Sequence record: NZ_CP029448.1
Length of the DNA: 64,000 nt
Direction: 5' to 3' (one strand)
Origin: a plasmid
Position 1 is the first letter of the stretch, and every line of letters starts with the position of its first letter. Below the pieces are notes generated by a model, which had not been told where the DNA came from, ran no database searches, and was given only the letters and a program-made list of their open reading frames with translations. This document shows positions 14,955 to 33,950 of this stretch, in pieces. Both the position numbers and the translations under genes were made by a program.

Positions 14955-15757
14955 TCGGTGGTGATAAACTTATCATCCCCTTTTGCTGATGGAGCTGCAC
15001 ATGAACCCATTCAAAGGCCGGCATTTTCAGCGTGACATCATTCTGTGGGCCGTACGCTGGTACTGCAAATACGGCATCAGTTACCGTGAGCTGCAGGAGA
15101 TGCTGGCTGAACGCGGAGTGAATGTCGATCACTCCACGATTTACCGCTGGGTTCAGCGTTATGCGCCTGAAATGGAAAAACGGCTGCGCTGGTACTGGCG
15201 TAACCCTTCCGATCTTTGCCCGTGGCACATGGATGAAACCTACGTGAAGGTCAATGGCCGCTGGGCGTATCTGTACCGGGCCGTCGACAGCCGGGGCCGC
15301 ACTGTCGATTTTTATCTCTCCTCCCGTCGTAACAGCAAAGCTGCATACCGGTTTCTGGGTAAAATCCTCAACAACGTGAAGAAGTGGCAGATCCCACGAT
15401 TCATCAACACGGATAAAGCGCCCGCCTATGGTCGCGCGCTTGCTCTGCTCAAACGCGAAGGCCGGTGCCCGTCTGACGTTGAACACCGACAGATTAAGTA
15501 CCGGAACAACGTGATTGAATGCGATCATGGCAAACTGAAACGGATAATCAACGCCACGCTGGGATTTAAATCCATGAAGACGGCTTACGCCACCATCAAA
15601 GGTATTGAGGTGATGCGTGCACTACGCAAAGGCCAGGCCTCAGCATTTTATTATGGTGATCCCCTGGGCGAAATGCGCCTGGTAAGCAGAGTTTTTGAAA
15701 TGTAAGGCCTTTGAATAAGACAAAAGGCTGCCTCATCGCTAACTTTGCAACAGTGCC
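14938..15757 (+). mobile_element. IS26 (820 bp) with 14-bp inverted repeats GGCACTGTTGCAAA, and no 8-bp target-site duplication.
   Basis: Inverted repeats at 14938..14951 and 15744..15757. Tnp26 is identical in pattern to IS26. The flanking octamers differ (tcggcggc / atttatac). Confidence 0.9.
15001..15705 (+). CDS. tnpA: IS26 transposase Tnp26 (234 aa).
   Basis: MNPFKGRHFQRDIILWAVRWYCKYGISYRELQEMLAERGVNVDHSTIYRWVQRYAPEMEKRLRWYW... matches IS26. Confidence 0.95.
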   Translation: MNPFKGRHFQRDIILWAVRWYCKYGISYRELQEMLAERGVNVDHSTIYRWVQRYAPEMEKRLRWYWRNPSDLCPWHMDETYVKVNGRWAYLYRAVDSRGRTVDFYLSSRRNSKAAYRFLGKILNNVKKWQIPRFINTDKAPAYGRALALLKREGRCPSDVEHRQIKYRNNVIECDHGKLKRIINATLGFKSMKTAYATIKGIEVMRALRKGQASAFYYGDPLGEMRLVSRVFEM

Positions 15758-18023: not shown

Positions 18024-21000
18024 GGGGTCAGTTTGGATATAGAGAATTATTGTACGGCAAGCCTGTTTTTTGAACAGGCTTGCCTATAGCAATAGGGTGT
18101 ACCCTTATGCGATACCATTTTTGTTAAAAATTCCGCATCAAATAATTTATGAGGGAAACTATATGGCAAGGAGGCAGATTCTTTCTCTGTCGGAAAGAGA
18201 ATCATTACTGGCATTGCCAGATGATGAGTTAACGCTGACCCGAATGGCCTATTTCAGTGAGCATGATCTGGCACTTATCAGTGCTCACCGTAAACCTGCC
18301 AGCCGTTTTGGTTTTGCCGTCCTTCTTTGCTACCTGAAAAATGTCGGCTTTGCTCCGGATAAAAAAATCCCACCCTCTGATGCGCTGCTGAAGCATATCG
18401 CCAGCAGGCTAAAGCTTACCGGGGATCTCTGGCCTGCTTACCTTTCCGGCAGGGATACGACCCGGCGTGAGCATTTAACCGAACTGTACCGCTATCTTGG
18501 CGTAAAGGCGTTCACCGGCAAAATACAGCAGGACGGTATTACGCACCTGTTGTCGATGGCGACGCGCACCGATAAAGGTATTCTCCTGGCCGAAGAGTTA
18601 CTGGTCTGGCTCCGGCAGAACAACGTGATAATTCCCGCGATTGATGTCGTGGAGCGGACCTGTGCGGAGGCCATGGCTGGCGGAGATAAAATCGTATTTC
18701 AGACCCTGAATGCCCCGTTAACTCCGGCGCACCGGGATGCCCTGGATCGTTTACTTGAGTCATCAGATAATCAGCCTTCCAGGCTGACATGGCTTCTGCA
18801 ACCGCCGGGTAAAATCAATGGTAAGAACGTACTGCAACATCTTGATCGGCTCAGCAGCATTGAATCGCTGGCATTACCTGAAGGTATAGATCGTACCATT
18901 CACCAGAACCGGTTGCTGAAACTGGCGCGGGAAGGCCGAAAGATGAGTAGCCGGGATTTGACCCGATTTTCAGCAGCCCGCCGTCATGCGATCCTGGTCT
19001 GCGTGCTGGAAGAAGCCAGAGCCACACTGACAGACGAAGTGATTGAGCTGCATGAACGAATGCTGAACAGCCTTTTCAACAAAGCCAAAAGAACACAGGC
19101 TGAGCGCCTTCAGCAGACCGGAAAGCTGATCCAGTCCAAACTGAGGCAGTACATCGATGTTGGTCAGGCGCTGTCTGATGCCCGCGACTCCGGTGGCGAT
19201 CCATGGCTCGCAATAGAAAACATACTCCCGTGGCCTGAATTTGTCGCCAGTCTGGAGGAAACACGCCATCTCGCCAGAAAAAATAATTTTGACCCGCTGC
19301 ATATTATTACTGAGAAATACAGCACATTACGGAAATATGCCCCGCGCATGTTGTCCGCTTTACAGTTAGTCGCAACCCCGGCAGCACAACCTCTGGCTGA
19401 TGCGCTGGTTGTGATCAAGGATATGTACCGGAAGCAGTCACGTAAAGTTCCGGCGACTGCGCCGCTTGAGTTTGTCCCTGAAAGCTGGCGCAAGGTGGTG
19501 ATTACACCTGCGGGTATTGACCGGCAGTATTATGAATTTTGTGCGCTCAGCGAGCTTAAGGGAGCGTTGCGCTCCGGGGACATCTGGGTTAAAGGCTCAC
19601 GCCGCTACAAAAATTTTGATGATTACCTCATTCCCGAAAAGGACTTTGACAAACTCACACCGGCGCTGCCACTGCCCGTATCTGCTGATTATCATGAGTA
19701 CATTGCCAGCCGTATGACTCTGCTTCAGTCCAGACTTGAAGAGGTCAATGCCATGGCTGCCCTTGGTGAACTGCCCGATGTGGAAATATCCGACAAGGGC
19801 GTAAAAGTCTCTCCGCTGGATAACTGCGTTCCGGCACAGGTTTCACCGCTGGCAGAACTGGTTTACAGCATGCTACCGCGACCTAAAATCACGGAAATTC
19901 TCGACGAGGTAAACTGCTGGACGACGTTTACCCGTCATTTTTCGCATATAAAAAATGACATTACCCGTCCCGATACCCGCCAGCTCCTCACCACCATTCT
20001 TGCGGATGGCATCAATCTTGGCCTGACCAAAATGGCAGAAGCCTGCCCCGGGAGCACCAAATCATCACTCGAAGATATTCAGGCATGGTATACCCGCGAC
20101 GAAACCTATTCAGCCGCGCTTGCTGAGCTGGTAAATGCGCAGGGAAAAAGACCACTGGCGGCATTCTGGGGAGACGGAACAACGTCATCATCAGATGGAC
20201 AGAATTTCAGAACAGGCAGCTCAGGCCGCTACGCAGGGCAGGTTAACCCGAAATATGGGCAAGAACCTGGACGTCAGTTTTATACCCATATTTCGGATCA
20301 ATACAGCCCGTTTTACACCTGCATAATAAGTCGGGTCAGGGATTCAACCCATGTTCTCGATGGTTTGCTGTATCACGAAAGCGACCTGGAAATCAGGGAG
20401 CATTACACCGATACAGCTGGTTTCACCGATCATGTCTTTGCCCTGATGCATCTGCTAGGCTTTGCGTTCTGTCCACGAATCAGGGATCTCCACGACAAAA
20501 AGCTGTTTATCAAAGGGAAAGCAGACCAATACCCGGCGCTTCAGTCACTGATATCAACAACCAGCCTGAATCTGAAAGAGATCGAAATTCACTGGCGTGA
20601 AGTGCTGCGCCTGGCAACCTCGATAAAGCAGGGAACCGTGACGGCATCCCTGATGCTTAAAAAGCTTGCCAGCTACCCCAAGCAAAACGGACTTGCCAAA
20701 GCACTGAGGGAAATTGGCCGTATTGAACGAACGCTGTTTATGCTCGACTGGTTCCGCGATCCGGCACTTCGTCGGCGGGTACAGGCGGGACTGAATAAAG
20801 GAGAAGCCCGTAACGCGCTGGCGCGCGCGGTATTCCTGCACCGTCTGGGTGAAATCAGGGATCGTAAACCGGAAAATCAGAGCTACCGCGCCAGCGGACT
20901 GACGCTGCTGACGGCAGCTATCTCGCTGTGGAATACCATCTATATGGAAAGAGCGGTCGATACCCTGAAGCGTAAAGGGATGAAGATCAACGAGCGACTG

Positions 21001-21173
21001 CTGTCGCATTTGTCCCCGCTAGGCTGGGAACACATCAATCTTACAGGCGATTATATCTGGAAAAGCAACCGGATACCGGCTTCCGGTAAGTTTCGTCGGC
21101 TGCGGCCAGCTAAAGTAGGAAGGTCAAAAAACGACCTTAACGTACAATAATTTTCGATATCCAAATTGACCCC
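18024..21173 (+). mobile_element. Unnamed Tn3-family IS-like element (3150 bp) made of a 38/39-bp inverted repeat, tnpA and a second inverted repeat, with no resolvase or passenger genes. It is inserted inside an F-type trbB gene. The flanking 5-mers do not match.
   Basis: Inverted repeats at 18024..18060 and 21135..21173. A single 996-aa Tn3-family transposase. The downstream flank encodes the trbB 3' part. Confidence 0.8.
18163..21150 (+). CDS. tnpA: Tn3-family (DDE) transposase, 996 aa from the ATG at 18163 with a GAGGGA ribosome-binding site. The ORF track starts earlier, at 18070.
   Basis: N-terminus [25 protein letters not shown] is typical of the Tn3 family. Full-length similarity to the Tn21-type TnpA at 51269..54235. 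The stop codon lies inside the right inverted repeat. Confidence 0.9.
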   Translation: MARRQILSLSERESLLALPDDELTLTRMAYFSEHDLALISAHRKPASRFGFAVLLCYLKNVGFAPDKKIPPSDALLKHIASRLKLTGDLWPAYLSGRDTTRREHLTELYRYLGVKAFTGKIQQDGITHLLSMATRTDKGILLAEELLVWLRQNNVIIPAIDVVERTCAEAMAGGDKIVFQTLNAPLTPAHRDALDRLLESSDNQPSRLTWLLQPPGKINGKNVLQHLDRLSSIESLALPEGIDRTIHQNRLLKLAREGRKMSSRDLTRFSAARRHAILVCVLEEARATLTDEVIELHERMLNSLFNKAKRTQAERLQQTGKLIQSKLRQYIDVGQALSDARDSGGDPWLAIENILPWPEFVASLEETRHLARKNNFDPLHIITEKYSTLRKYAPRMLSALQLVATPAAQPLADALVVIKDMYRKQSRKVPATAPLEFVPESWRKVVITPAGIDRQYYEFCALSELKGALRSGDIWVKGSRRYKNFDDYLIPEKDFDKLTPALPLPVSADYHEYIASRMTLLQSRLEEVNAMAALGELPDVEISDKGVKVSPLDNCVPAQVSPLAELVYSMLPRPKITEILDEVNCWTTFTRHFSHIKNDITRPDTRQLLTTILADGINLGLTKMAEACPGSTKSSLEDIQAWYTRDETYSAALAELVNAQGKRPLAAFWGDGTTSSSDGQNFRTGSSGRYAGQVNPKYGQEPGRQFYTHISDQYSPFYTCIISRVRDSTHVLDGLLYHESDLEIREHYTDTAGFTDHVFALMHLLGFAFCPRIRDLHDKKLFIKGKADQYPALQSLISTTSLNLKEIEIHWREVLRLATSIKQGTVTASLMLKKLASYPKQNGLAKALREIGRIERTLFMLDWFRDPALRRRVQAGLNKGEARNALARAVFLHRLGEIRDRKPENQSYRASGLTLLTAAISLWNTIYMERAVDTLKRKGMKINERLLSHLSPLGWEHINLTGDYIWKSNRIPASGKFRRLRPAKVGRSKNDLNVQ

Positions 21174-21473
21174 ATGCAGGGACACTGTCCCTACTGTCAT
21201 AAATTTGACCCGGTGCTGAAGCAGCTGGCCGGACAGTATGGCTTCTCCGTGTTCTCTTACACCATTGACGGACAGGGTGATGACGCGTTTCCGGAAGCGC
21301 TGCCGGCGCCTCCTGACGTGATGCAGACCTTTTTCCCCAATATCCCGGTGGCCACACCGACTACGTTTCTGGTGAACGTAAACACGCTGGCAGCGTACCC
21401 GATCCTGCAGGGCGCCACGGATGCACAGGGCTTTATGGCCAGAGTGGATACGGTATTTCAGATGATGCACTGA
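21174..21473 (+). pseudogene. trbB: 3' portion of F-type trbB (a periplasmic thioredoxin-like CPYC disulfide isomerase), severed by the Tn3-family element.
   Basis: MQGHCPYCHKFDPVLKQLAGQYGFSVFSYTIDGQGDDAFPEALPAPPDVMQTFFPNIPVATPTTFLVNVNTL matches the F TrbB central and C-terminal region. The N-terminal half is absent. Confidence 0.7.
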
Positions 21474-21584: not shown

Positions 21585-21860
21585 GTGGCTTCTGTTTCTA
21601 TCAGCTGTCCCTCCTGTTCAGCTACTGACGGGGTGGTGCGTAACGGCAAAAGCACTGCCGGACATCAGCGCTATCTCTGCTCTCACTGCCGTAAAACATG
21701 GCAACTGCAGTTCACTTACACCGCTTCTCAACCCGGTACGCACCAGAAAATCATTGATATGGCCATGAATGGTGTTGGATGCCGGGCAACCGCCCGCATT
21801 ATGGGCGTTGGCCTCAACACGATTTTACGTCACTTAAAAAACTCAGGCCGCAGTCGGTAA
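21585..21860 (+). CDS. insA: IS1 InsA.
   Basis: [43 protein letters not shown]... is canonical InsA. Confidence 0.9.
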
Positions 21861-22282
21861 CCTCGCGCATACAGCCGGGCAGTGATGTGATTGTCTGCGC
21901 TGAAATGGACGAACAGTGGGGCTACGTCGGTGCTAAATCACGTCAGCGCTGGCTGTTTTACGCGTATGACAGGATACGCAGGGTGGTGGTAGCCCACGTC
22001 TTCGGTGAACGCACTCTGGCCACACTGGAGCGTCTTCTGAGCCTGCTGTCGGCCTTTGAGGTCGTGGTATGGATGACGGATGGCTGACCGCTGTATGAAT
22101 CCCGCCTGAAGGGAAAGCTGCACGTTATCAGCAAGCGTTACACTCAGCGCATTGAGCGACATAACCTGAATCTGAGACAACATCTGGCAAGGCTGGGACG
22201 GAAGTCCCTGTCGTTCTCCAAATCGGTGGAGCTGCATGACAAAGTCATCGGGCACTATCTGAACATAAAACACTATCAGTAA
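21779..22282 (+). pseudogene. insB: IS1 insB interrupted by an in-frame TGA at 22085..22087 (WMTDG* where IS1 has [10 protein letters not shown]). The downstream part remains in frame to 22282.
   Basis: Compared with the intact insB at 10194..10697: GATGGCTGGCCGCTG there versus GATGGCTGACCGCTG here. Confidence 0.8.
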
Positions 22283-22585: not shown

Positions 22586-24109
22586 ATGAACGACAAAATC
22601 AGTCAGGACACGATCAACAAAGCCCTGTGGGCCGCGTGTGATACGTTCCGTGGCACCATCAGTGCTGATACCTATAAAGACTTTATCCTTACCATGCTGT
22701 TCCTTAAGTACATTTCGGATGTCTGGCAGGATCATTACGATGAATATAAAAAACAGTATGGTGATGCACCAGAACTCATTGAAGCCATGATGGCCAACGA
22801 GCGTTTTGTACTGCCAAAAAGTGCCAGCTTTTATGCGCTGTACGAACGCCGCCATGAGCCGGGTAACGGTGAGCGTATCGATCAGGCTCTGCATGCGATT
22901 GAAGAAGCTAATGGCACCAAACTGAAAGACGCCGGGAAAAGCGTGTTCCAGGATATTTCGTTTAACACCGATCGCCTAGGTGAAGAAAAACAGAAGAACA
23001 CCATCCTGCGTCAGCTGCTGGAAGACTTTGCCGGTCAAGATCTTAACCTGAAGCCGAGCCGTGTCGGTACGCTGGACGTTATCGGTAATGCCTACGAATA
23101 TCTGATCAAAAACTTTGCTGCCAGCGGTGGGCAGAAAGCCGGGGAGTTCTATACCCCGCCGGAAGTTTCGGACCTGATTGCAGAACTGCTCGATCCGCAA
23201 CCGGGTGATACCATCTGCGATCCAGCCTGTGGTTCCGGTTCATTATTGATGAAGTGTGGGCGTAAAATTGTCTCCGGGCATGATAGTCGTAACTATGCAT
23301 TGTTCGGTCAGGAAGCGATCGGTTCTACGTGGTCGCTGGCGAAAATGAATATGTTCCTGCACGGGGAAGACAACCATAAAATCGAGTGGGGCGATACCAT
23401 TCGCAACCCGAAGCTGCTCGATAAAAATGGCGACCTGATGCTGTTTGATATCGTGACCGCTAACCCACCGTTCAGCCTCGATAAGTGGGGCCATGACGAG
23501 GCCGAGAACGATAAGTTTGGCCGTTTTCGTCGCGGTGTACCGCCGAAGACTAAAGGAGATTACGCTTTTATCTCGCATATGATCGAAACCCTGAAACCGG
23601 GAACTGGCCGTATGGGCGTAGTTGTGCCACACGGTGTGCTTTTCCGTGGCTCCAGCGAAGGTAAAATTCGCCAGAAACTGATCGACGAAAATTTGCTGGA
23701 TGCGGTAATTGGTCTGCCGGAAAAACTGTTCTACGGTACGGGGATTCCGGCTGCGATTCTGATTTTCAAAAAGCAGAAAGTTGATGACAAGGTGCTGTTT
23801 ATCGATGCCAGCCGTGAATTCAAGGCAGGTAAAAACCAGAACCAGCTTAGCGAAGAAAACATTAAGAAAATCGTCAAGACCTACCGTGATGGCGATAACG
23901 TCGAGAAATATGCCTACCTTGCCAGCCTGAAAGAGATTCAGGACAACGACTATAACCTCAATATCCCGCGCTATGTCGATACCTTTGAAGAAGAGGAAGA
24001 GATCGATTTGCTGGCGGTACGTGCTGAGCGTGAGCAACTGAAAGCGGAATTGGCGAAGCTGGAAACGGAGATGGCTGGATATTTGAAGGAGTTGGGTTAT
24101 GATTCCTAA
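22586..24109 (+). CDS. hsdM: Type I restriction-modification system methyltransferase subunit (N6-adenine).
   Basis: AdoMet-binding segment (ICDPACGSGSLL) and the NPPF catalytic motif (TANPPFSL). 507 aa. Confidence 0.9.
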   Translation: MNDKISQDTINKALWAACDTFRGTISADTYKDFILTMLFLKYISDVWQDHYDEYKKQYGDAPELIEAMMANERFVLPKSASFYALYERRHEPGNGERIDQALHAIEEANGTKLKDAGKSVFQDISFNTDRLGEEKQKNTILRQLLEDFAGQDLNLKPSRVGTLDVIGNAYEYLIKNFAASGGQKAGEFYTPPEVSDLIAELLDPQPGDTICDPACGSGSLLMKCGRKIVSGHDSRNYALFGQEAIGSTWSLAKMNMFLHGEDNHKIEWGDTIRNPKLLDKNGDLMLFDIVTANPPFSLDKWGHDEAENDKFGRFRRGVPPKTKGDYAFISHMIETLKPGTGRMGVVVPHGVLFRGSSEGKIRQKLIDENLLDAVIGLPEKLFYGTGIPAAILIFKKQKVDDKVLFIDASREFKAGKNQNQLSEENIKKIVKTYRDGDNVEKYAYLASLKEIQDNDYNLNIPRYVDTFEEEEEIDLLAVRAEREQLKAELAKLETEMAGYLKELGYDS

Positions 24110-25325
24110 GGGGTGGTCATCTCAGAAACTCTCATCGGTTGCGTCGATAATCGATTGCAAACACAGGACTCCTGAGTACGTTAAATCGGGAATACCACTT
24201 GTCTCACCGGGGACGATAAAATGGGGAGCCTTAGATCTGATTTCACCTGTAAAAAGAGTTACAGAAGAAGAATATCGCTCTCTGATGGATCACTGTGTTG
24301 TTGAACAAGGTGATTTGGTTATGAGTCGTAACCAGTCTGTCGGTGTTGTTAGCTATGTGGATTCCAAAAAGCCATTTGTATTAGGGCAAGACACTGTCTT
24401 AATTAAAGCAATCCATGCAGATTGGCGGTTTATTTACTACACATTACAATCAGATTTAGTCCAGCGACAGATAGCAAAAAGTGCAGGTGGTTCTACCTTT
24501 TCTAGAATTAACCTTTCTGATATTAGAGCGTTAAACATAAAAACTCCTGCTATTTGTGAACAAGATAAAATATCTCAAATTCTGACCGCCTGGGATAAGG
24601 CAATTTCGGTGACGGAAAGCCTTCTCGCCAACAGTCAACAGCAGAAAAAAGCCCTGATGCAGCAATTGCTTACCGGGAATAAACGGTTGCTGGATGAGAA
24701 TGGGGTGAGGTTTAGTGGGGAGTGGAAAATTACTAAACTAATACAAATGGGCAAAGTTGTATCCGGTGGAACACCTGATACAAACATGGCCATGTATTGG
24801 GAAGGCGATATTCTATGGCTTACCCCAACTGATGTTACTGCATTAACGGGTAGGTTCGTTAGCAATACTAGTAGAAAAATTACTCCTGCGGGATTACTAA
24901 ATAGCTCAGCTGTTCTTTTGCCAAAAGGTAGTTTGATGGTATGTACAAGAGCTACCATTGGTGCTTTAGCAATTTCGACATCGGAAATTTGTACCAATCA
25001 AGGTTTTAAAAACATCATTCCGAATGAAGGGTTTAATATCGAATTTATTTATTATTTGTTGCAAATGAACACAAATGAGATGATCAAAAAATCATCTGGC
25101 TCAACATTTTTAGAACTTTCCAAGAAAGATTTTGAAACTTTAAGCTTTTCTTGCCCATTTATTAAAGAGCAACAAAAAATCGCCGCCGTGCTGTCCGCTG
25201 CTGACACCGAAATCTCCACACTTGAGAAAAAACTCGCCTGCCTGAAAGACGAGAAGAAAGCCTTGATGCAGCAACTGCTGACCGGGAAACGTCGGGTGAA
25301 AGTGGATGAGGCGGTTGCCGTATGA
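24099..25325 (+). CDS. hsdS: Type I restriction-modification system specificity subunit, with two target-recognition domains and conserved repeats.
   Basis: Duplicated conserved region KKALMQQLLTGNKRL / KKALMQQLLTGKRRV. It overlaps hsdM by 11 nt. Confidence 0.9.
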   Translation: MIPKGWSSQKLSSVASIIDCKHRTPEYVKSGIPLVSPGTIKWGALDLISPVKRVTEEEYRSLMDHCVVEQGDLVMSRNQSVGVVSYVDSKKPFVLGQDTVLIKAIHADWRFIYYTLQSDLVQRQIAKSAGGSTFSRINLSDIRALNIKTPAICEQDKISQILTAWDKAISVTESLLANSQQQKKALMQQLLTGNKRLLDENGVRFSGEWKITKLIQMGKVVSGGTPDTNMAMYWEGDILWLTPTDVTALTGRFVSNTSRKITPAGLLNSSAVLLPKGSLMVCTRATIGALAISTSEICTNQGFKNIIPNEGFNIEFIYYLLQMNTNEMIKKSSGSTFLELSKKDFETLSFSCPFIKEQQKIAAVLSAADTEISTLEKKLACLKDEKKALMQQLLTGKRRVKVDEAVAV

Positions 25326-26005
25326 AACTGACGAAAAGCGGTCCACTGACTGACCGGGAAATCGACTGGCTGGAAGAAATATTAATGAAGTATGGAATGG
25401 ATGATTCTGTACTCTGTTTCTCTGAGCTGGATGGATTGCTGACGGCGATTGTCTCTGGCCCGAATACGATTTCCCCTAATACCTGGCTCAGTGCTATCTG
25501 GGGGCGAGGTGATTACCACCCTCGCTGGACCACTGAAAAAGAGATGACGCGTTTTGTGGGGCTGTGTTTTCAGCATATGAACGATATCGCTGGCTGCCTG
25601 TATGAGGCCCCTGAACAGTTTGAACCGATTTTCAATGGACGTGAGGTGAAGGGGAAGACATATACCATCGTCGAAGAGTGGTGTTTCGGGTATATGAAAG
25701 GCCGGTCTCTGGATGACTGGTCAGCCTTGCCAGAGTCCTTACGTCCCTCGCTGGAGGCGATAGCCCTTCATGGTATTGAAAAGAACTTCCCAGTGGTTGA
25801 GAAAATGTCACCTGTTCAATTTGAACAGAGTATTACTCTCATTCAGCCTGCGGCACTGGCGCTTTACCAGCACTGGTTGTCGGTGAGAATGTCAGAGGCA
25901 TCATCCCGGCCTGTTCCCGTGAAGGGGGCAGAAAAACTGCCCGGTCGTAATGACCCGTGTCAGTGTGGCAGTGGTAAAAAATTTAAAAAGTGCTGCCTGC
26001 ACTGA
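25322..26005 (+). CDS. YecA-like (UPF0149) protein with a C-terminal SEC-C zinc-binding motif, embedded in the restriction-modification operon.
   Basis: Collinear similarity to E. coli YecA (GPLTDREIDWLEEIL..., TRFVGLCFQHM, EPIFNGREV, TIVEEWCFGYM, ALHGIEKNF) and PGRNDPCQCGSGKKFKKCCLH at the C-terminus. Its start overlaps the hsdS stop (ATGA). Confidence 0.8.
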   Translation: MKLTKSGPLTDREIDWLEEILMKYGMDDSVLCFSELDGLLTAIVSGPNTISPNTWLSAIWGRGDYHPRWTTEKEMTRFVGLCFQHMNDIAGCLYEAPEQFEPIFNGREVKGKTYTIVEEWCFGYMKGRSLDDWSALPESLRPSLEAIALHGIEKNFPVVEKMSPVQFEQSITLIQPAALALYQHWLSVRMSEASSRPVPVKGAEKLPGRNDPCQCGSGKKFKKCCLH

Positions 26006-26027
26006 CAAAGCGGAAGGGGGCTTGCTC

Positions 26028-27812
26028 ATGGCAGTGAACAATCTGGATCGTTCCCGGTGGTACATGGGAAATGTTCTCTGGTTCGGAGGCTACAACAGCA
26101 AAACGGATCGGGAGAATAACTTTGGCTTTCTCTTATCAGAGAATGGTAATGAGCTGTTTTTTCATAAGAATGAGATAAGCCGGAACTATACACCCGCTGA
26201 CAATGCACCGGTGCTGTTCAGGGAAGGTACAGGTAAAAATGGTAAGCCTACGGCTTTTAATGTTCACATTCTTGATAAAACAGATGAGGAGACGGCTGAG
26301 CTCCTTATTGAATATCTCCGGGCTATTATTGAGGAGGGCGTTGATTTCGCTCGTTGGCGTTATCGTGACTGCGTTATTAATTTCCTCACTCAGTCCTTTG
26401 GCGAAAGGGCTATAATTCGGTTAGTTACCAGTGATATAGCTGCTACAAAAGTCTTACCGCTATTTTTAAAATCACGTAACTACGATAACCAGTTTGCACT
26501 TTTCGCATCTGATAAGAATTTTGATGATTTGACCGCACAACAAATATCTCCTGCGGTCATGCCTTCGTCATTTATCGATAATAACATTGATCAATTCGCT
26601 GTTTGGGTGAAAAGATGTTCTGCGGCTACGGATTGCCAGGGGGCTTCAACATCGGACATCATCAATGAATTACTCAGCCATATATCTATAAGTGCTATTC
26701 TCTACCTGGCTTTTTACGATTGTATAAGTAGCGAGCGGATTCTTGAGCATCGGCATGATGATATAGAGAATTTTGTTCGACATAGTTTCACGAAAAATAA
26801 AATGGATATACAACCATTTGTCCGTGATGCCTATCAGCAGAAATTCTCATCGAGAGAGCAATTTTATAAACATTCCGTGATTAGTCCTTTTATCAATACG
26901 TATTTGATTAAACAGAAGATGTTCAGAAAAGATTTCAGTTTTGTTAATGATATCGAGTCGAATACTGAAATTGCTTCTGATCCTGAATACTTCATTCTGA
27001 GTAAATTGTTACCGTTGCTTGGGCGCAACGATGAACAGTCCGTTCTGAGTATTATTCTGCATGAGATATGGCACGGAGTCTTGTCGGGTAAAATTCCGGT
27101 AAATCATCCTTCTGTTTTCAAATTGTTCCCACAATGTAGTTCATTACAAATTCGTTTCCCAAGTTTAGAATTATCCTGTGAGGCGTTTCACTGGAATGCA
27201 AAACAACCTGACGGAACGATAGAGAAAAAATTCCTTTGTCGTTCGAAAATCTGCCATGATCCGCAGGTATTACCCGACCTCAGTCGGGATTACATCGACT
27301 TCACTATTTATGACTGGCTTGCCCACTATGGCATGACCTATCTGATTGCAGGCGAACCTTCTAAGCGGGATTTCCCAATTAAACTGGCTGGGTATTTCAA
27401 TCGTATCAGAGAATTACATTCCCGCTTGCATTGCCGAAGTTGTGGGGTGCTGATGGTTCCAGATATGAAATATGCTCGTGTGGAAGTCAGCGTCTGGGAT
27501 ACAAAGTCGAAAGGATTTGTGAAAAAACCTTTCCAGGCCGCGTATCGCCTGACCGTCTTTAAATGTGCCAGTCATTCGTGCGAACAGTTTGGTATCGGGC
27601 ATTACATTAATCACTGTATTGGTTACAAATGCAGCGAAATAATTGACGCCAGGGATTTGCATGAAAAATGTTCAGAAGGACGATTTATTTGTGCATCCTG
27701 TGGTTCCTGCTGTACGACGCATCAGGAGAAATTTGGTAATGTAAACAAGGGCGAAACAGAACAGGTCAAGTACAATCGCCTTTATCGGGACTCGCCGTTC
27801 TTTTCATCATAA
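26028..27812 (+). CDS. Protein of 594 aa with an N-terminal cold-shock domain (CSD) and a Cys/His-rich C-terminal region (putative zinc ribbons). Function unknown; it is embedded between hsdS and hsdR.
   Basis: The CSD signature YMGNVLWFGGYN...NFGFLLSENGNELFFHKNEI...GKPTAFNV. The C-terminal cluster HCRSCG, CASHSCEQ, HCIGYKC and CASCGSCC. ATG at 26028, 23 nt after the preceding stop. Confidence 0.6.
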   Translation: MAVNNLDRSRWYMGNVLWFGGYNSKTDRENNFGFLLSENGNELFFHKNEISRNYTPADNAPVLFREGTGKNGKPTAFNVHILDKTDEETAELLIEYLRAIIEEGVDFARWRYRDCVINFLTQSFGERAIIRLVTSDIAATKVLPLFLKSRNYDNQFALFASDKNFDDLTAQQISPAVMPSSFIDNNIDQFAVWVKRCSAATDCQGASTSDIINELLSHISISAILYLAFYDCISSERILEHRHDDIENFVRHSFTKNKMDIQPFVRDAYQQKFSSREQFYKHSVISPFINTYLIKQKMFRKDFSFVNDIESNTEIASDPEYFILSKLLPLLGRNDEQSVLSIILHEIWHGVLSGKIPVNHPSVFKLFPQCSSLQIRFPSLELSCEAFHWNAKQPDGTIEKKFLCRSKICHDPQVLPDLSRDYIDFTIYDWLAHYGMTYLIAGEPSKRDFPIKLAGYFNRIRELHSRLHCRSCGVLMVPDMKYARVEVSVWDTKSKGFVKKPFQAAYRLTVFKCASHSCEQFGIGHYINHCIGYKCSEIIDARDLHEKCSEGRFICASCGSCCTTHQEKFGNVNKGETEQVKYNRLYRDSPFFSS

Positions 27813-27881
27813 GTCTTCGTTCATTTTGAGTATGTCCGTAAGGACATACAGTTTCACCTCTTAGCCAAGAAGGATTACCGG

Positions 27882-30800
27882 GTGGATAAGCACTACCAAC
27901 CTAAATTCCAGGAAGAATACAGCGCCAAAATTCCGGCACTGACGTTACTGACCAGCCTCGGCTGGACGTTTTTATCTCCGAAACAGATTATGGATTACCG
28001 GGGCTATAAACAGGATGAGGTGGTGCTGCGTCCGGTTCTGCGTGAAGAGCTGTCGAAGCGTTCCTTTATGGCGGGTGGCAAAACCTGCCAGTTATCGGAA
28101 AAAGCACTGGCTAACCTGATATCACAGGTCTGTTCTCCGGCGCTGAATGAAGGGCTGCTCAAAGCCAATGAACGGATGTATAACCATCTGCTCTACGGTA
28201 TCGCCGTCACGGAGTTTGTCGATGGCAAGAAGGTCAACCCCACCATTGCGCTGATCGACTGGGAACATCCGGAAAATAACCAGTTCCATTTTACTGAAGA
28301 ATTTACGGTATTGCGGTCAGGTGGTGTTGAAACCCGGAGGCCAGATATTGTCTGCTTTGTTAATGGTATCCCGCTGGCTGTTATTGAAGCGAAAAGCCCG
28401 GCTGGTCATGGCAAGAAAGGGCCAACCATTGACGAGGGGATATCCCAGAGTATCCGCAACCAGTTCAACGATGAAATCCCGCAGCTGTTTGTCTACAGCC
28501 AGTTATTACTTTCGATTAACGGTCATGACGGGCGCTACGGTACCTGCCATACGCCAATGAAATTCTGGGCGGCATGGCGCGAAGAAGATATTACCGATCC
28601 GCAGATGTATGCGCTGCGCAACCATCCTTTATCGACTGAACAAATTCATGCGTTGTTTGATCATCGTCCTTCAGTCGATCTCAAATGGTATCAACAGTTA
28701 ATCGATGGGGGGGAACTGGCAGTCAGCGGGCAGGATAAGCTGCTCATCAGTCTGCTTTCACCGGAACGTCTGCTGGAGATGACCCGCTTCTTCACCCTGT
28801 TTGATAAAAAAACCGGAAAAATTGTTGCCCGCTATCAGCAGGTGTTCGGGATAAAAAGACTGCTGGAACGCATCAGTACCCGCAGACCAGACGGGGGCAG
28901 GGAAGGTGGGGTGATCTGGCATACCACGGGGTCAGGTAAATCTTACACCATGGTATTCCTCAGCAAGGCGCTGATTCTTCATGACAGCCTGAAGCAGTGT
29001 CGTATTGTGGTGGTGACGGACCGCGTGGACCTTGAAGGGCAGCTCAGCGGCACTTTTGTTTCTGGTGGCGAACTGGCAGGGAAGGATGATAAGGCCAAAG
29101 CGATGGCGACCTCAGGTCAGAAGCTGGCACAGCAGATTGGCTCTGGTAAAGAACGTATAATCTTTACCCTTATCCAGAAATTTAACTCAGCGACAAAATT
29201 GCCTGAATGCGTCAACACCAGCCCCGACATCATCGTTCTGATTGATGAAGGACACCGTAGCCAGGGTGGTGAGAACCATGTGCGAATGAAACTGGCACTG
29301 CCGAACGCCGCCTTTGTAGCATTTACTGGTACGCCATTGCTAAAAGAAGATAAGACCACCAATAAATTCGGACCGATTGTCCACGCTTATACCATGCAGC
29401 GAGCGGTAGAAGATAAAGCCGTTACACCTTTGCTGTATGAAGAACGTATTCCCGACCTTGAGGTTAACGATCGGGCAATAGATGCCTGGTTTGATCGTAT
29501 TACCGATGGGTTAAGCGAAGCGCAAAAAGCCGACCTTAAGCGTAAATATGCCCGTAAAGGTGAGGTTTATAGTGCAGATGATCGCATCCGTCTGATCGCA
29601 CTCGATATCGCCACGCACTTCTCGAAGAATATTGATGAGGGACTGAAAGGCCAGCTTGCCTGCGACAGCAAGATTTCCGCCATCAAATATAAAAAGTATC
29701 TTGATGAAGCCGGGTTGTTTGAGTCAGCTGTAGTTATCAGCCCGCCGGATACCCGGGAAGGGAATACTGAGGTGGATGAAAGCAAACTGCCGGAAGTGAC
29801 GAAATGGTGGAAAGATAACGTCGGCACGCAGGATGAGTCTGTGTATACCCGCAATATCATCAGTCGTTTCGATACCGATGAGAAGCTCAAATTGCTGATA
29901 GTCGTTGATAAACTGCTCACCGGGTTTGATGAGCCGAAGAATACCGTGCTGTATATCGACAAGCCGCTTAAGTCCCACAACCTTATCCAGGCGATTGCGC
30001 GGGTGAACCGACTGCATCCACTAAAAAAGTTCGGTCTGCTGATTGATTATCGCGGTATTCTGGCTGAGCTGGACACGACTATCGGCAAATATCAGGACCT
30101 CGCCTCCCGAACTCAGGGCGGATACGATATCAAAGATATTGACGGGCTGTACAGCGCCATGAGCTCTGAATACAAGCGTCTACCGCATCTGTATAACCAG
30201 CTGTGGGCCATATTTGCCGGTGTTAAAAACAAAAATGATACTGAGCAGTTACGTGCGGTACTGGTGCCTAAAATGGAAGAACGTGACGGAGAGATGGTCG
30301 ATATCCATCAGAAAACCCGTGATGATTTCTTCGAGGCGTTAACGGCCTTTGCCGGATGCCTGAAAGTGGCACTGCAGTCCGCCACCTTCTTCACCGACAA
30401 GAGCTTTACGGAACAAGACCGAAACCTCTATAAAGAAACCGTAAAACAGATGTCCAGCCTGCGCCAGTGGGCGATGCAGGTAAGTGGAGAGCAGGTCAAT
30501 TATGACGACTACGCTGAGCAGGTGAAAAAATTGCTGGATAAGCATGTCACCGGCGTTGAGGTTCGTGAACCGGATGGCGTGTATGAAGTCGGTAAAATGG
30601 GCAAGAGCGAAAAACCCGAAGAGTGGGATAACAATAAAACCCGCAATGAAACCGACATCATTAAAACCCGCGTGACGAAGATGATTGAGCAGGAATTGCG
30701 TGATGACCCGTATGCTCAGGAGGCATTTTCAAAACTCCTGCGTATGGCTATCGAAGAGGCTGAAAAACTGTTTGACCATCCGCTGAAACAGTACCTTTTG

Positions 30801-31166
30801 TTCCGTGAATTTGAAGAACAGGTTGAAGCCCGTAAGCTCAGCGATATCCCGGATGCACTGGCGGTAAACAAGCATGCTCAGGCGTATTACGGTGTATTTA
30901 AAAAAGAGCTACCTGAGGTTTTTGCGGTAAACGACGTTCAGGTGCAGGATAAGTGGACGAAGCTGGCTTTTGAAGTGGACAACATTATCGTCAAAGCGGT
31001 GGCAGAAAACTCCCTGAACCCCCAGGACATTGAGAAAGTCGTTAAGACAAGTCTGCTACCACTGCTGTTTACGGCCTGCCGGGAAATTGGTGCCGGAATG
31101 AATCAGGTTAACCGTATTGTTGAAACCATCATCCAGATACTGCGCGTTGGTTTGATGAAATCATGA
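27882..31166 (+). CDS. hsdR: Type I restriction-modification system restriction (endonuclease/helicase) subunit.
   Basis: HsdR N-terminal nuclease domain (RRPDIVCFVNGIPLAVIEAKSP). SF2 helicase motifs (HTTGSGKSYTM Walker A, DEGHRSQ DEAH box). 1094 aa. Confidence 0.9.
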   Translation: MDKHYQPKFQEEYSAKIPALTLLTSLGWTFLSPKQIMDYRGYKQDEVVLRPVLREELSKRSFMAGGKTCQLSEKALANLISQVCSPALNEGLLKANERMYNHLLYGIAVTEFVDGKKVNPTIALIDWEHPENNQFHFTEEFTVLRSGGVETRRPDIVCFVNGIPLAVIEAKSPAGHGKKGPTIDEGISQSIRNQFNDEIPQLFVYSQLLLSINGHDGRYGTCHTPMKFWAAWREEDITDPQMYALRNHPLSTEQIHALFDHRPSVDLKWYQQLIDGGELAVSGQDKLLISLLSPERLLEMTRFFTLFDKKTGKIVARYQQVFGIKRLLERISTRRPDGGREGGVIWHTTGSGKSYTMVFLSKALILHDSLKQCRIVVVTDRVDLEGQLSGTFVSGGELAGKDDKAKAMATSGQKLAQQIGSGKERIIFTLIQKFNSATKLPECVNTSPDIIVLIDEGHRSQGGENHVRMKLALPNAAFVAFTGTPLLKEDKTTNKFGPIVHAYTMQRAVEDKAVTPLLYEERIPDLEVNDRAIDAWFDRITDGLSEAQKADLKRKYARKGEVYSADDRIRLIALDIATHFSKNIDEGLKGQLACDSKISAIKYKKYLDEAGLFESAVVISPPDTREGNTEVDESKLPEVTKWWKDNVGTQDESVYTRNIISRFDTDEKLKLLIVVDKLLTGFDEPKNTVLYIDKPLKSHNLIQAIARVNRLHPLKKFGLLIDYRGILAELDTTIGKYQDLASRTQGGYDIKDIDGLYSAMSSEYKRLPHLYNQLWAIFAGVKNKNDTEQLRAVLVPKMEERDGEMVDIHQKTRDDFFEALTAFAGCLKVALQSATFFTDKSFTEQDRNLYKETVKQMSSLRQWAMQVSGEQVNYDDYAEQVKKLLDKHVTGVEVREPDGVYEVGKMGKSEKPEEWDNNKTRNETDIIKTRVTKMIEQELRDDPYAQEAFSKLLRMAIEEAEKLFDHPLKQYLLFREFEEQVEARKLSDIPDALAVNKHAQAYYGVFKKELPEVFAVNDVQVQDKWTKLAFEVDNIIVKAVAENSLNPQDIEKVVKTSLLPLLFTACREIGAGMNQVNRIVETIIQILRVGLMKS

Positions 31167-31918
31167 GTGAAAAAGAATCGCCATCAATGAAAGCGTTACG
31201 CATTGTCTATGGTGATGAGGTCATCGTCGTACAGTGTGTTCCGCGTCAGGTCGTAAAGGGCAGGGTGCTCATCAAGGTGCATCCGGACTGCCGGGTTATT
31301 GTCTCTGTACCTCCAGAAACACCGGAGCACGAGCTGTTGTCTGCGCTGAAAAAAAGAGGGCGCTGGATATACCAGCAACTGCGTGATTTCAGGGAGCAAC
31401 AGACACACATTGTTCCGCGTCAGTATGTCAGCGGAGAAAGCCATTATTATCTCGGTAAGCAATATCAGTTGAAAGTGACAGAAGACGCTACTGTGCCGCA
31501 ACGAGTGAAAATGTTGCGTGGGCGTCTGGAAGTGACTGTCAGACACAAATCGGCAGAAAAGATTAAAGCCTTGCTGGCTGAATGGTATCGGGAACGTGCC
31601 AGAGATGTTTTTCAGCGCAGGCTTGATTTACTGATTCCGCAGACCCTTTGGGTCAGTGAGCGTCCTCCGATACGTCTGCGGGCGATGCAAACTCAATGGG
31701 GCAACTGTTCAGCAAAAGGCTGTCTGACCCTGAATCCATGGCTGGTTAAGGCATCCTCAGAATGTATCGATTATGTTTTGCTACATGAGTTATGCCATGT
31801 GGCTGAGCACAACCACAGCGAGAAGTTTTACCGTCTGATGGGGCAGGTTATGCCGGGCTGGGAAAAGGTTAAGAAGCGACTGGATGGTATGGCTGGGATG
31901 TTGTTGGCAGATATGTAG
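31163..31918 (+). CDS. DUF45/YgjP-like zinc metallopeptidase (HExxH), translationally coupled to hsdR.
   Basis: LLHELCHVAEHNHS contains an HELCH motif. 251 aa. The start overlaps the hsdR stop by 4 nt. Confidence 0.7.
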   Translation: MSEKESPSMKALRIVYGDEVIVVQCVPRQVVKGRVLIKVHPDCRVIVSVPPETPEHELLSALKKRGRWIYQQLRDFREQQTHIVPRQYVSGESHYYLGKQYQLKVTEDATVPQRVKMLRGRLEVTVRHKSAEKIKALLAEWYRERARDVFQRRLDLLIPQTLWVSERPPIRLRAMQTQWGNCSAKGCLTLNPWLVKASSECIDYVLLHELCHVAEHNHSEKFYRLMGQVMPGWEKVKKRLDGMAGMLLADM

Positions 31919-32760: not shown

Positions 32761-32777
32761 ATACCGCAGGAGGCATG

Positions 32778-33950
32778 ATGGAGAGCATTAATAATCAAGT
32801 GCAGTCGGTACGCCAGTTGCTGGCCATTCCCCAACTGGCCATCCCAAGCTATCAGCGACCTTACCGCTGGGGCTCCAAGAATATCTCGGATCTCTTTACC
32901 GATTTGGCAACCCATCAGGACAAGAGCGCCTACCGGCTGGGCTCGGTGGTGTTTCATCAGCACACCGATAGTGAGCAGGGCGAGATGCTTGATATCGTCG
33001 ATGGTCAGCAACGCACCCTGACCCTGATGTTGACCGTCAAGGCGCTGATCGAGGTGCTGGATAACGAAAATCGCAGTGGCAAAGAGAAGAGTATCCGGTT
33101 TCAACGTCAGGATCTGCGTGAGCAATTGCAGGTCTTGCGTGGACCTATCGATGCGTTTATGCAGCGCCAGCGCTTCCCCAGCCGGGATTCGGAGTTCAAC
33201 CTCAGACGCAACTATCTGGAGTTGCGTCGGCTGGTGGCCCGCCCTGAGTTTGACGAGCAGCAAATTGACTTTCTGCTCAACCGCTGTCAGGTGGTCTGCT
33301 TTGTGCTGCAGGATATCTCGGAGGCGTTCCAGTTCTTCGATTCGCAAAATGCCCGGGGGCGCGATCTGGCTCCTCACGATCTGCTCAAGGCATTTCACCT
33401 GCGCGAGTTTGCCGGTCATGAGGCCAATCTCAAGGCCGAGGCGGTCGCCCATTGGGAGCGCCTGCCAAGCGACGAGCTGGCCAATCTGTTCGCCCTCTAT
33501 CTCTATCGGGTACGCCAGTGGGCCGAGGGCAAGTCGGCCCGCTACTTTGGCAAGGGGGAGGTGGATCTCTTCAAGGGGGTCAACCTAGATCGGGTAGGGC
33601 ATTATCCTTACGTGGAGTCGCTGCGCATCGCCCACCACTTTGTCGATGAGTACAACAGCCAGTACCAGCGCAAGATTGACGGCCAGTACATGACGTTTCC
33701 CTTTCATCTCGACCAGATGATCATCAATGGTCGGCGCTTTTTCGAGATGGCCGAGTACTACCAGACGCGGGTGGCCGCCATCGTGGCCGAGGAGTCTGAT
33801 TCCGGCAAGGCGCAATCTGCCACCCTGCTCGGCGAAACGCTGACACCGATGGCCAGCAAGGTGCTATCGACCCTGGGCAGTTACGAGCGACGCCACCGCA
33901 CCGGGGATCGTTATGTGCGGGCCATGTTCGACTGCGCCCTGATCTTCTAG
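32778..33950 (+). CDS. DUF262 (ParB/Srx-like nucleotidase superfamily) protein of 390 aa, with a QRxYxW motif near the N-terminus and a DGQQR motif. It is a solitary gene in a ~60% GC segment.
   Basis: IPSYQRPYRWG and DIVDGQQRTLTL motifs. There is no DUF1524/HNH partner domain. The stop codon abuts the Tn3-type inverted repeat at 33951. Confidence 0.6.
   Translation: MESINNQVQSVRQLLAIPQLAIPSYQRPYRWGSKNISDLFTDLATHQDKSAYRLGSVVFHQHTDSEQGEMLDIVDGQQRTLTLMLTVKALIEVLDNENRSGKEKSIRFQRQDLREQLQVLRGPIDAFMQRQRFPSRDSEFNLRRNYLELRRLVARPEFDEQQIDFLLNRCQVVCFVLQDISEAFQFFDSQNARGRDLAPHDLLKAFHLREFAGHEANLKAEAVAHWERLPSDELANLFALYLYRVRQWAEGKSARYFGKGEVDLFKGVNLDRVGHYPYVESLRIAHHFVDEYNSQYQRKIDGQYMTFPFHLDQMIINGRRFFEMAEYYQTRVAAIVAEESDSGKAQSATLLGETLTPMASKVLSTLGSYERRHRTGDRYVRAMFDCALIF

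Follow-up and report, generated by a model that had tools for sequence, protein, structure and literature searches.

The 64,000-nucleotide stretch of plasmid DNA analysed here (record NZ_CP029448.1; hereafter the window) carries at positions 22,586 to 31,918 a mobile type I restriction-modification (R-M) cassette, in which two non-R-M genes are embedded between hsdS and hsdR. The first (25322..26005) encodes a YecA-like protein, and the second (26028..27812) encodes a 594-aa protein with an N-terminal cold-shock domain (CSD) and a Zn-rich C-terminal domain, referred to below as the CSD protein; these and all other features of the cassette are on the + strand. We propose, with moderate confidence, that the cassette consists of a fixed backbone and a slot which holds two independently acquired and separable cargo genes, each of them an autonomous candidate defence gene. 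On the most economical reading, each gene is cargo of its own in a recognised hotspot, and the CSD family is a defence candidate, probably an autonomous one.

The same hsdM/hsdR/M48 backbone was found with different contents in the slot. In one E. coli genome that also holds the six-gene version, the slot is empty and hsdS and hsdR are 21 nt apart. In about 220 E. coli genomes, and in one metagenome contig as well, the slot contains the YecA-like gene alone, and both genes occupy it in about 190-200 E. coli genomes and 130 plasmids. Cassettes with only a CSD-family gene were observed as well; the gene of Aeromonas is 44% identical and overlaps hsdR, and that of Vibrio vulnificus is 38% identical. 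In a ranked sample drawn from the 664 matching E. coli records, the cassette had six genes in about 190, was YecA-only in about 220 and had an empty slot in about 45, the remainder being truncated by insertion sequences (IS). Since each embedded gene occupies the slot without the other, the two genes are separable and are not an obligate pair. The preliminary description of this DNA had proposed that they are a functional pair, a view which the YecA-only cassettes of E. coli and the CSD-only cassettes of Vibrio and Aeromonas do not support.

The composition and the borders of the CSD gene also set it apart. Its GC content is 41.6% and its GC content at third codon positions (GC3) is 41.5%, whereas the hsdM, YecA-like, hsdR and peptidase genes have a GC content of 49-50% and a GC3 of 53-56% (53.5% for the YecA-like gene). 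The insertion relative to YecA-only cassettes was located at 26006..27899 from the junction sequences, the HsdR N-terminus and GC3. Homology to the YecA-only cassettes is lost right after the stop codon of the yecA-like gene and regained after the sixth hsdR codon, and HsdR begins with MDKHYQ here versus MNQTYT in the cassettes without the CSD gene. Because its GC3 is 13 points below that of its neighbors and the insertion has defined boundaries, the CSD gene is best seen as separately acquired cargo. A sharply different composition had been named beforehand as a sign of an unrelated insertion; this holds in part, as the CSD gene differs clearly in composition and is a discrete insertion, which supports separate acquisition but does not make the gene unrelated. 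Both cargo genes are under purifying selection, with omega values of 0.11-0.23 between cassettes. Their synonymous divergence (dS) between cassettes is 0.05-0.27, usually below the 0.14-0.65 of hsdM and hsdR, which suggests that the module has been exchanged between diverged backbones.

An alternative is that the YecA-like and CSD proteins form a two-component module, in which YecA would serve as a ribosomal chaperone or sensor and the CSD protein as an RNA-targeting effector. The dS shared by the two genes, below that of the flanking hsd genes, implies that they travel together, and in all Enterobacteriaceae cassettes carrying the CSD gene the YecA-like gene lies 22 nt 5' of it. E. coli YecA (AscA) binds SecB and ribosomes via its metal-binding motif and has holdase activity (bioRxiv 10.1101/2020.07.21.215244), and a CSD would suit RNA binding. 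We nevertheless consider such a module very unlikely. The YecA-like gene stands alone in the E. coli genomes and the metagenome contig mentioned above, the CSD gene stands alone in Aeromonas, Vibrio and all BREX contexts described below, the two genes differ in GC3, and Citrobacter braakii has a frameshifted YecA-like gene together with an intact CSD gene.

Judged by its domains, the locus is a type I R-M system, and sequence-specific methylation and ATP-dependent restriction are predicted for it. Six open reading frames (ORFs) were found at 22586-31918, all co-oriented and tightly packed. The methyltransferase subunit HsdM (22586..24109) has the N6-adenine methyltransferase domain (Pfam N6_Mtase, PF02384, E=3e-107) and HsdM_N, and scored 285 bits with the NCBIfam hsdM equivalog TIGR00497, above the cut-off. 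The specificity subunit HsdS (24099..25325) contains two target-recognition domains (two matches to Methylase_S, PF01420) and matched PADLOC Specificity_I over its full length. The restriction/translocase subunit HsdR (27882..31166) combines a nuclease with a superfamily 2 translocase (Pfam HSDR_N, SWI2_SNF2, ResIII and T1R_D3-like; PADLOC REase_I, 1372 bits; TIGR00348, 460 bits). Its motor domain matched that of EcoR124I HsdR (type IC) only distantly, and no type I subfamily was assigned. The most variable gene of the cassette is hsdS, with a GC content of 41% and 31-69% identity between cassettes that are otherwise 96-99% identical. The ORF coordinates and the co-oriented type I operon with two non-R-M genes between hsdS and hsdR were as the preliminary description had given them. 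It had called the operon seven-gene, but six genes are listed and present, and neither an RptR-like ORF nor any other seventh ORF was found upstream of hsdM. The overlaps of 11, 4 and 4 nt at three junctions were reproduced, while the two gaps are 22 and 69 nt rather than 23 and 70 nt. Consensus scans gave no internal promoters separating the cargo genes over the shuffled background and no convincing + strand terminator between them.

The last gene of the operon (31163..31918) encodes a YgjP-like/DUF45 Zn peptidase, annotated as M48 or SprT-family (Pfam YgjP-like PF01863, E=4e-59), with the HExxH motif HELCH at residues 208-212 (31784-31798). Whether the slot is empty or filled with the YecA-like gene, the CSD gene or both, the peptidase gene comes next after hsdR, to which it is translationally coupled. 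Since it follows hsdR in all versions, including the published RRDM island (PMC12255303), the peptidase is part of the R-M backbone and not a dedicated partner of the cargo genes. The earlier suggestion that it could be the cognate processing enzyme of the two embedded genes is not supported, as the peptidase gene is retained even where the slot is empty or, in RRDM, carries DarTG2. A 4-nt overlap of the DUF45 gene with the hsdR stop is shared by every enterobacterial version of the backbone; for Vibrio and Aeromonas, a homologue was seen within a few nt 3' of hsdR.

The neighborhoods of CSD-family homologues were surveyed beyond this backbone. Among 56 divergent metagenome loci, 37 were informative; type I R-M genes were present in 5 of the 37 and genes of type 1 bacteriophage exclusion (BREX) systems in 14. 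The remaining 18 loci had heterogeneous island-type neighbors, i.e., HipA, integrases, helicases, a Cas-associated protein and KilA-N. Three genome loci lie in type 1 BREX systems, before pglZ or just after brxL, and the metagenome locus L104 has the order BrxC-PglX-GmrSD-541aa-CSD-PglZ-BrxL, in which the GmrSD is BrxU-like. A V. cholerae copy is in an integrase island with an hsdR fragment, a V. metschnikovii copy is in the variable region of an SXT-type integrative and conjugative element (ICE) beside a Fic gene, and other copies are near Mrr/NERD-helicase, McrBC-like/WYL and nSTAND genes. In both type I R-M and BREX loci, the gene is on the same strand as the core defence genes and between them, and this arrangement recurs in divergent homologues. 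The question whether homologues concentrate in defence loci, raised in the preliminary description, can hence be answered for this family: it is strongly enriched inside type I R-M and BREX loci.

Two further observations were made in these loci. A protein of about 541 aa without a Pfam match is encoded beside CSD-family genes, on either side, in several BREX loci (L013 2333-3958, L104 6577-8202, and also L109, L114, L117 and L120), and may be a partner or another cargo gene. A metagenome cassette (L069 3507-12048) has the same backbone, with hsdM 79% and hsdR 73% identical, and its hsdS-hsdR slot holds five genes, encoding a weakly HEAT-like protein, an unknown protein, an AAA_15/21 ATPase, a CSD-family protein and a KAP NTPase.

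It is already established that defence genes can be nested in the hsdS-hsdR and pglX-pglZ intervals, and the YecA-like gene has been listed as a candidate before. The validated nested defences PrrC, DarTG2, TgvAB and BrxU occupy exactly the slots of the CSD family. A closely similar arrangement is the RRDM island of enteropathogenic E. coli, which has the same order of hsdM, hsdS, cargo and hsdR followed by a M48/YgjP-type metallopeptidase, and in which the hsdS-hsdR site was called a likely recombination hotspot for defence systems (PMC12255303). In contrast to the present cassette, its full order is RptR-HsdM-HsdS-DarT-DarG-HsdR-M48, with an RptR repressor gene upstream of hsdM, of which no counterpart was found here, and its cargo is a toxin-antitoxin system, DarTG2, whose ADP-ribosylating effector is known (PMC12255303). 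TgvAB, on the hsdS-hsdR side of a type I R-M system in V. cholerae VPI-2 (PMC11411939), and BrxU, between pglX and pglZ of the pEFER BREX system, share these slots with the CSD family. They are GmrSD-type modification-dependent nucleases with known domains, whereas the CSD family has no nuclease signature. The guilt-by-embedding rationale, together with BrxU, was presented in a survey in which the genes embedded in systems of this kind were mostly defence-related or unknown and not housekeeping (bioRxiv 10.1101/2024.01.29.577857).

The likening of the embedded genes to PrrC, made in the preliminary description, is apt. PrrC in the EcoprrI locus is likewise a single gene inside a type I R-M operon, co-expressed with it, and is the classic second defence line nested in R-M; it differs in having ABC-ATPase and nuclease domains and in being kept latent by EcoprrI (PMC12707154), and the CSD protein shares no domain with it. 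Neither cargo protein has the ABC-type ATPase and C-terminal anticodon nuclease of PrrC/RloC-type guardians, and no ATPase or nuclease domain was detected in either by Pfam, PADLOC or NCBIfam. Since CSD-family homologues are also found in BREX loci and alone, dependence of the family on the R-M complex is not indicated.

The CSD protein itself was analyzed from the 26028 start (594 aa), whereas the NCBI annotation starts the gene at 25950 (620 aa). The start at 26028 has a GAAGGGGG ribosome-binding site 8 nt upstream and agrees with the N-termini of the homologues. The 83 full-length homologues have three regions in common, the CSD at the N-terminus, a helical region that varies between them and, at the C-terminus, a highly conserved domain, and the AlphaFold2 model of the 594-aa protein has a pLDDT of 87. 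The match to CSD was weak at the sequence level. The N-terminal domain (residues ~10-82, 26055..26273) is a true CSD fold: it is a five-stranded OB barrel which keeps the RNP1/RNP2-type aromatic residues (WF...FGF...FFH) and has a 9-residue insert after strand 1. The all-helical middle region (residues ~84-345, 26277..27062), delimited from the secondary structure of the model and the alignment, differs in length between homologues, some of which have inserts of up to 300 aa, and had no sequence match in the PDB. A trigger-factor-like chaperone in this region was considered and rejected, as a full-length family profile matched trigger factor at E=0.005 and a clean profile of the middle domain gave no match even at E<=10.

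The C-terminal Zn-rich domain (residues ~340-594, 27045..27809) comprises about 230 aa with 15 invariant Cys and 2 invariant His (C370, C384, C404, C409, C469, C472, C513, C518, H529, C530, C535, C548, C555, C558, C561, C562 and H565) and the invariant motifs SCEA, DFPIKLAGYxNR and IIDxRD. The remote-homology and structure check of the 26028..27812 product recovered the CSD fold and, among solved structures, no analogue of the Zn-rich domain. A profile of this domain retrieved at least 827 cluster representatives, many of them 800-1280 aa long with the domain at the C-terminus. Pfam identified CSD in 10 and HARP in 4 of 55 distant carriers, both nucleic-acid-binding, and no enzyme domain in any of the 55. 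A phage origin of the CSD gene was considered as well and rejected, since tblastn found no viral homologue in 50,697 phage records and none was found in IMG/VR or matched in PHROG. The family appears to be undescribed in the literature and libraries searched, and to the extent of that search no description of the CSD protein as an R-M accessory was met, in agreement with the earlier statement. A cold-shock-type OB fold fused to defence machinery is also found in CoCoNuT systems (CnuB/CnuC), where it is predicted to sense RNA; the fusion there is to a McrB GTPase or McrC nuclease, in contrast to the helical region and Zn-rich domain here (PMC11090510).

These features suggest how the cassette might work if the embedded genes are independent defence cargo. 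The hsdS-hsdR junction is a known site of insertion of extra defence genes, and its cargo here would be transcribed with the hsd genes. The CSD protein would act as a self-contained second-line immune protein: its CSD may bind single-stranded nucleic acid arising in infection, either phage RNA or ssDNA intermediates, and the conserved Zn-rich domain may then execute or trigger the response. Nesting in methylation-based systems would provide co-regulation and cover phages that escape those systems. A more specific version is put forward only tentatively, namely that the CSD/Zn-rich family represents a previously unrecognised immune protein which is self-contained and whose zinc-rich effector or signalling fold is new. 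It would nest specifically in type I R-M and type 1 BREX systems and serve them as a guard or backup, sensing single-stranded nucleic acid of phages or a methyltransferase complex inhibited by anti-restriction proteins.

The region between the CSD gene and hsdR raises a different possibility. The 69-nt spacer arrived with the CSD insertion and carries two predicted RNA hairpins (27830..27886; minimum free energy -22.7 kcal/mol, z=-2.85, 0 of 200 shuffles as stable), the second of which covers the ribosome-binding site and the GTG start of hsdR. The first has a perfect 8-bp stem and a GUAA loop. The CSD protein could accordingly be an accessory or regulator of methylation-based restriction rather than an autonomous defence, which delays or tunes the expression or activity of HsdR (or PglZ/BrxL) on entry to an unmethylated host, e.g., by melting the hsdR leader as an RNA chaperone. 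It could alternatively be a guard, set off when the methyltransferase complex is inhibited by anti-restriction proteins (e.g., Ocr), which block both type I R-M and BREX, and PrrC offers a precedent for such a guard (PMC12707154). The replacement of the hsdR start by the insertion and its structured leader would fit a regulator, as would the mobility of the carriers (conjugative plasmid, pipolin and ICE) and the position of the gene, which in two unrelated methylation-based systems always follows the methyltransferase/specificity genes and precedes the effector genes. We regard this role as unlikely, because homologues exist without adjacent R-M or BREX genes, the predicted hairpins are missing from the Vibrio and Aeromonas versions, where the CSD gene and hsdR abut or overlap, and the same backbone is common without the CSD gene, which makes the gene dispensable for establishment. 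A protein of 594 aa whose Zn-rich domain is conserved would also be elaborate for an RNA chaperone.

The other cargo protein is, by sequence comparison, paralogous to the chaperone YecA/AscA along its full length. It shares 59% identity with E. coli YecA from end to end (223 aa), scored 352 bits with the NCBIfam YecA equivalog NF007704 (cut-off 149), and contains UPF0149 (PF03695) followed by SEC-C (PF02810). The full UPF0149 domain and the C-terminal CxC...C(C/H) SEC-C motif which characterize the YecA/AscA family are both present, and the metal-binding motif of SecA type is intact (CQCGSGKKFKKCCLH). Relatives residing in the slot are at least 69% identical to it, while chromosomal orthologues are at most about 58-59% identical among the matches listed, and by this comparison the embedded paralogues form a separate clade located only in the R-M slot. 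Another UPF0149 protein, YgfB, works by binding the antiterminator AlpA (PMC9998450). The frameshifted gene of Citrobacter braakii is that of strain ATCC 51113 (L009 9294-9975), where it is broken into three frames upstream of the intact CSD gene. PADLOC calls the YecA-like protein PDC-S12 (E=2e-97), one of the candidates derived from BREX-, DISARM- and type I R-M-embedded genes (bioRxiv 10.1101/2024.01.29.577857). The protein matches both YecA/AscA and PDC-S12 end to end; the embedded clade is separate from chromosomal YecA, whereas PDC-S12 is a candidate only and its model mixes the embedded clade with housekeeping YecA.

Another possibility is that one of the embedded genes, or both, are carried as neutral or selfish passengers without a defence role. 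The YecA copy could, for example, be a captured housekeeping gene, and the CSD protein a nucleic-acid-binding factor for replication or transfer of the mobile element. The YecA-like protein passes the NCBI YecA equivalog model, the E. coli island bearing the cassette integrates next to chromosomal yecA, which suggests a capture route, the CSD family is present on plasmids, ICEs and integrase islands, and no effector domain was detected. We consider passengers distinctly unlikely, since both genes are under purifying selection, their recurrent embedding in operons belonging to two defence systems spans roughly 30-99% identity, embedded genes in the survey cited above are mostly defence-related or unknown and not housekeeping (bioRxiv 10.1101/2024.01.29.577857), and the YecA paralogue clade is well apart from the chromosomal orthologues. 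In the pipolin/tRNA-Leu island of E. coli, the cassette was observed directly beside chromosomal yecA, so that paralogue and original may be within 3 kb of each other (L042 5295-8740, L001). The adjacency of island and chromosomal yecA hints at the route of the first yecA capture.

Several points weigh against reading the two genes as autonomous defence cargo. For the YecA-like gene, the PDC-S12 model scores housekeeping E. coli YecA (L042 8075-8740) at 366.6 bits versus 323-331 bits for the embedded paralogue, and E. coli yecA adjoins the defence-island (tRNA-Leu) integration site (cf. PMC11551731); because the model favours chromosomal YecA and yecA adjoins the island site, the PDC-S12 label is weak evidence. 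For the CSD family, about half of the informative loci do not adjoin R-M or BREX genes, the neighbors in Erwinia, Pseudoalteromonas and a Burkholderiaceae genome are ordinary or housekeeping genes, and the census was a tblastn search with a small query set in which many contigs were short. The CSD protein had no recognizable catalytic domain and no match in PADLOC, NCBIfam or PHROG, and about 500 of its 594 residues had no structural analogue; hence any effector activity is purely inferred. The literature search found no experimental report of protection against phages or plasmids by either gene.

The window itself is, judging from its gene content and alignments, a Klebsiella IncF-type plasmid. 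Neighbors of the cassette in the window include IncFII RepA, Tn3-family and IS1/IS26 transposases and a TraF fragment, and the region is 99.3% identical to IncFIB/IncFII conjugative plasmids of Klebsiella pneumoniae. On these related plasmids, the cassette is between traX-finO and the replication region. The CSD gene was found at 99% identity or above on 130 plasmids, 129 of which are from Klebsiella, and the whole cassette at about 96% identity in about 190 E. coli chromosomes, one example being in a pipolin-type island. The cassette is also present in Buttiauxella, Franconibacter, Citrobacter, Enterobacter and others, and a complete six-gene copy was located in E. coli ATCC 8739, a strain in common laboratory use (NZ_CP043852.1 1578254-1587573).

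Around the cassette, mobile-element debris was observed on both sides in the window: an IS6/IS26-type transposase, two Tn3-family transposases, a TraF fragment and an IS1 fragment (14983-15705, 18070-21150, 21174-21473, 21779-22087 and 39198-42095). The IS1 fragment ends 500 nt upstream of hsdM. In related plasmids, traX-finO-PIN precede the cassette in place of this debris. Downstream of the cassette, a 391-aa GmrSD_N/DUF7834 ORF was found at 32775-33950, and related plasmids and E. coli islands have at this site an intact DUF262 gene pair of 1452 and 2043 nt (L033 15249-18735, L040 9505-12991). Because the pair is intact in these relatives, the copy in the window looks truncated or rearranged.

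In practical terms, the PADLOC PDC-S12 call cannot tell the embedded YecA paralogue from housekeeping YecA, and because the model scores YecA above the embedded paralogue, PDC-S12 calls in genome surveys are likely mostly chromosomal yecA. The DUF45/M48 peptidase is a component of the R-M backbone whose part in type I restriction is apparently unexplained. What is new here is the CSD/Zn-rich family, which is well defined and apparently unstudied, and with its confident structural model and strong embedding statistics it is a target for the discovery of defence mechanisms. Given the frequency of the cassette on clinical Klebsiella IncF plasmids and in E. coli, its function bears on phage therapy and on plasmid spread.

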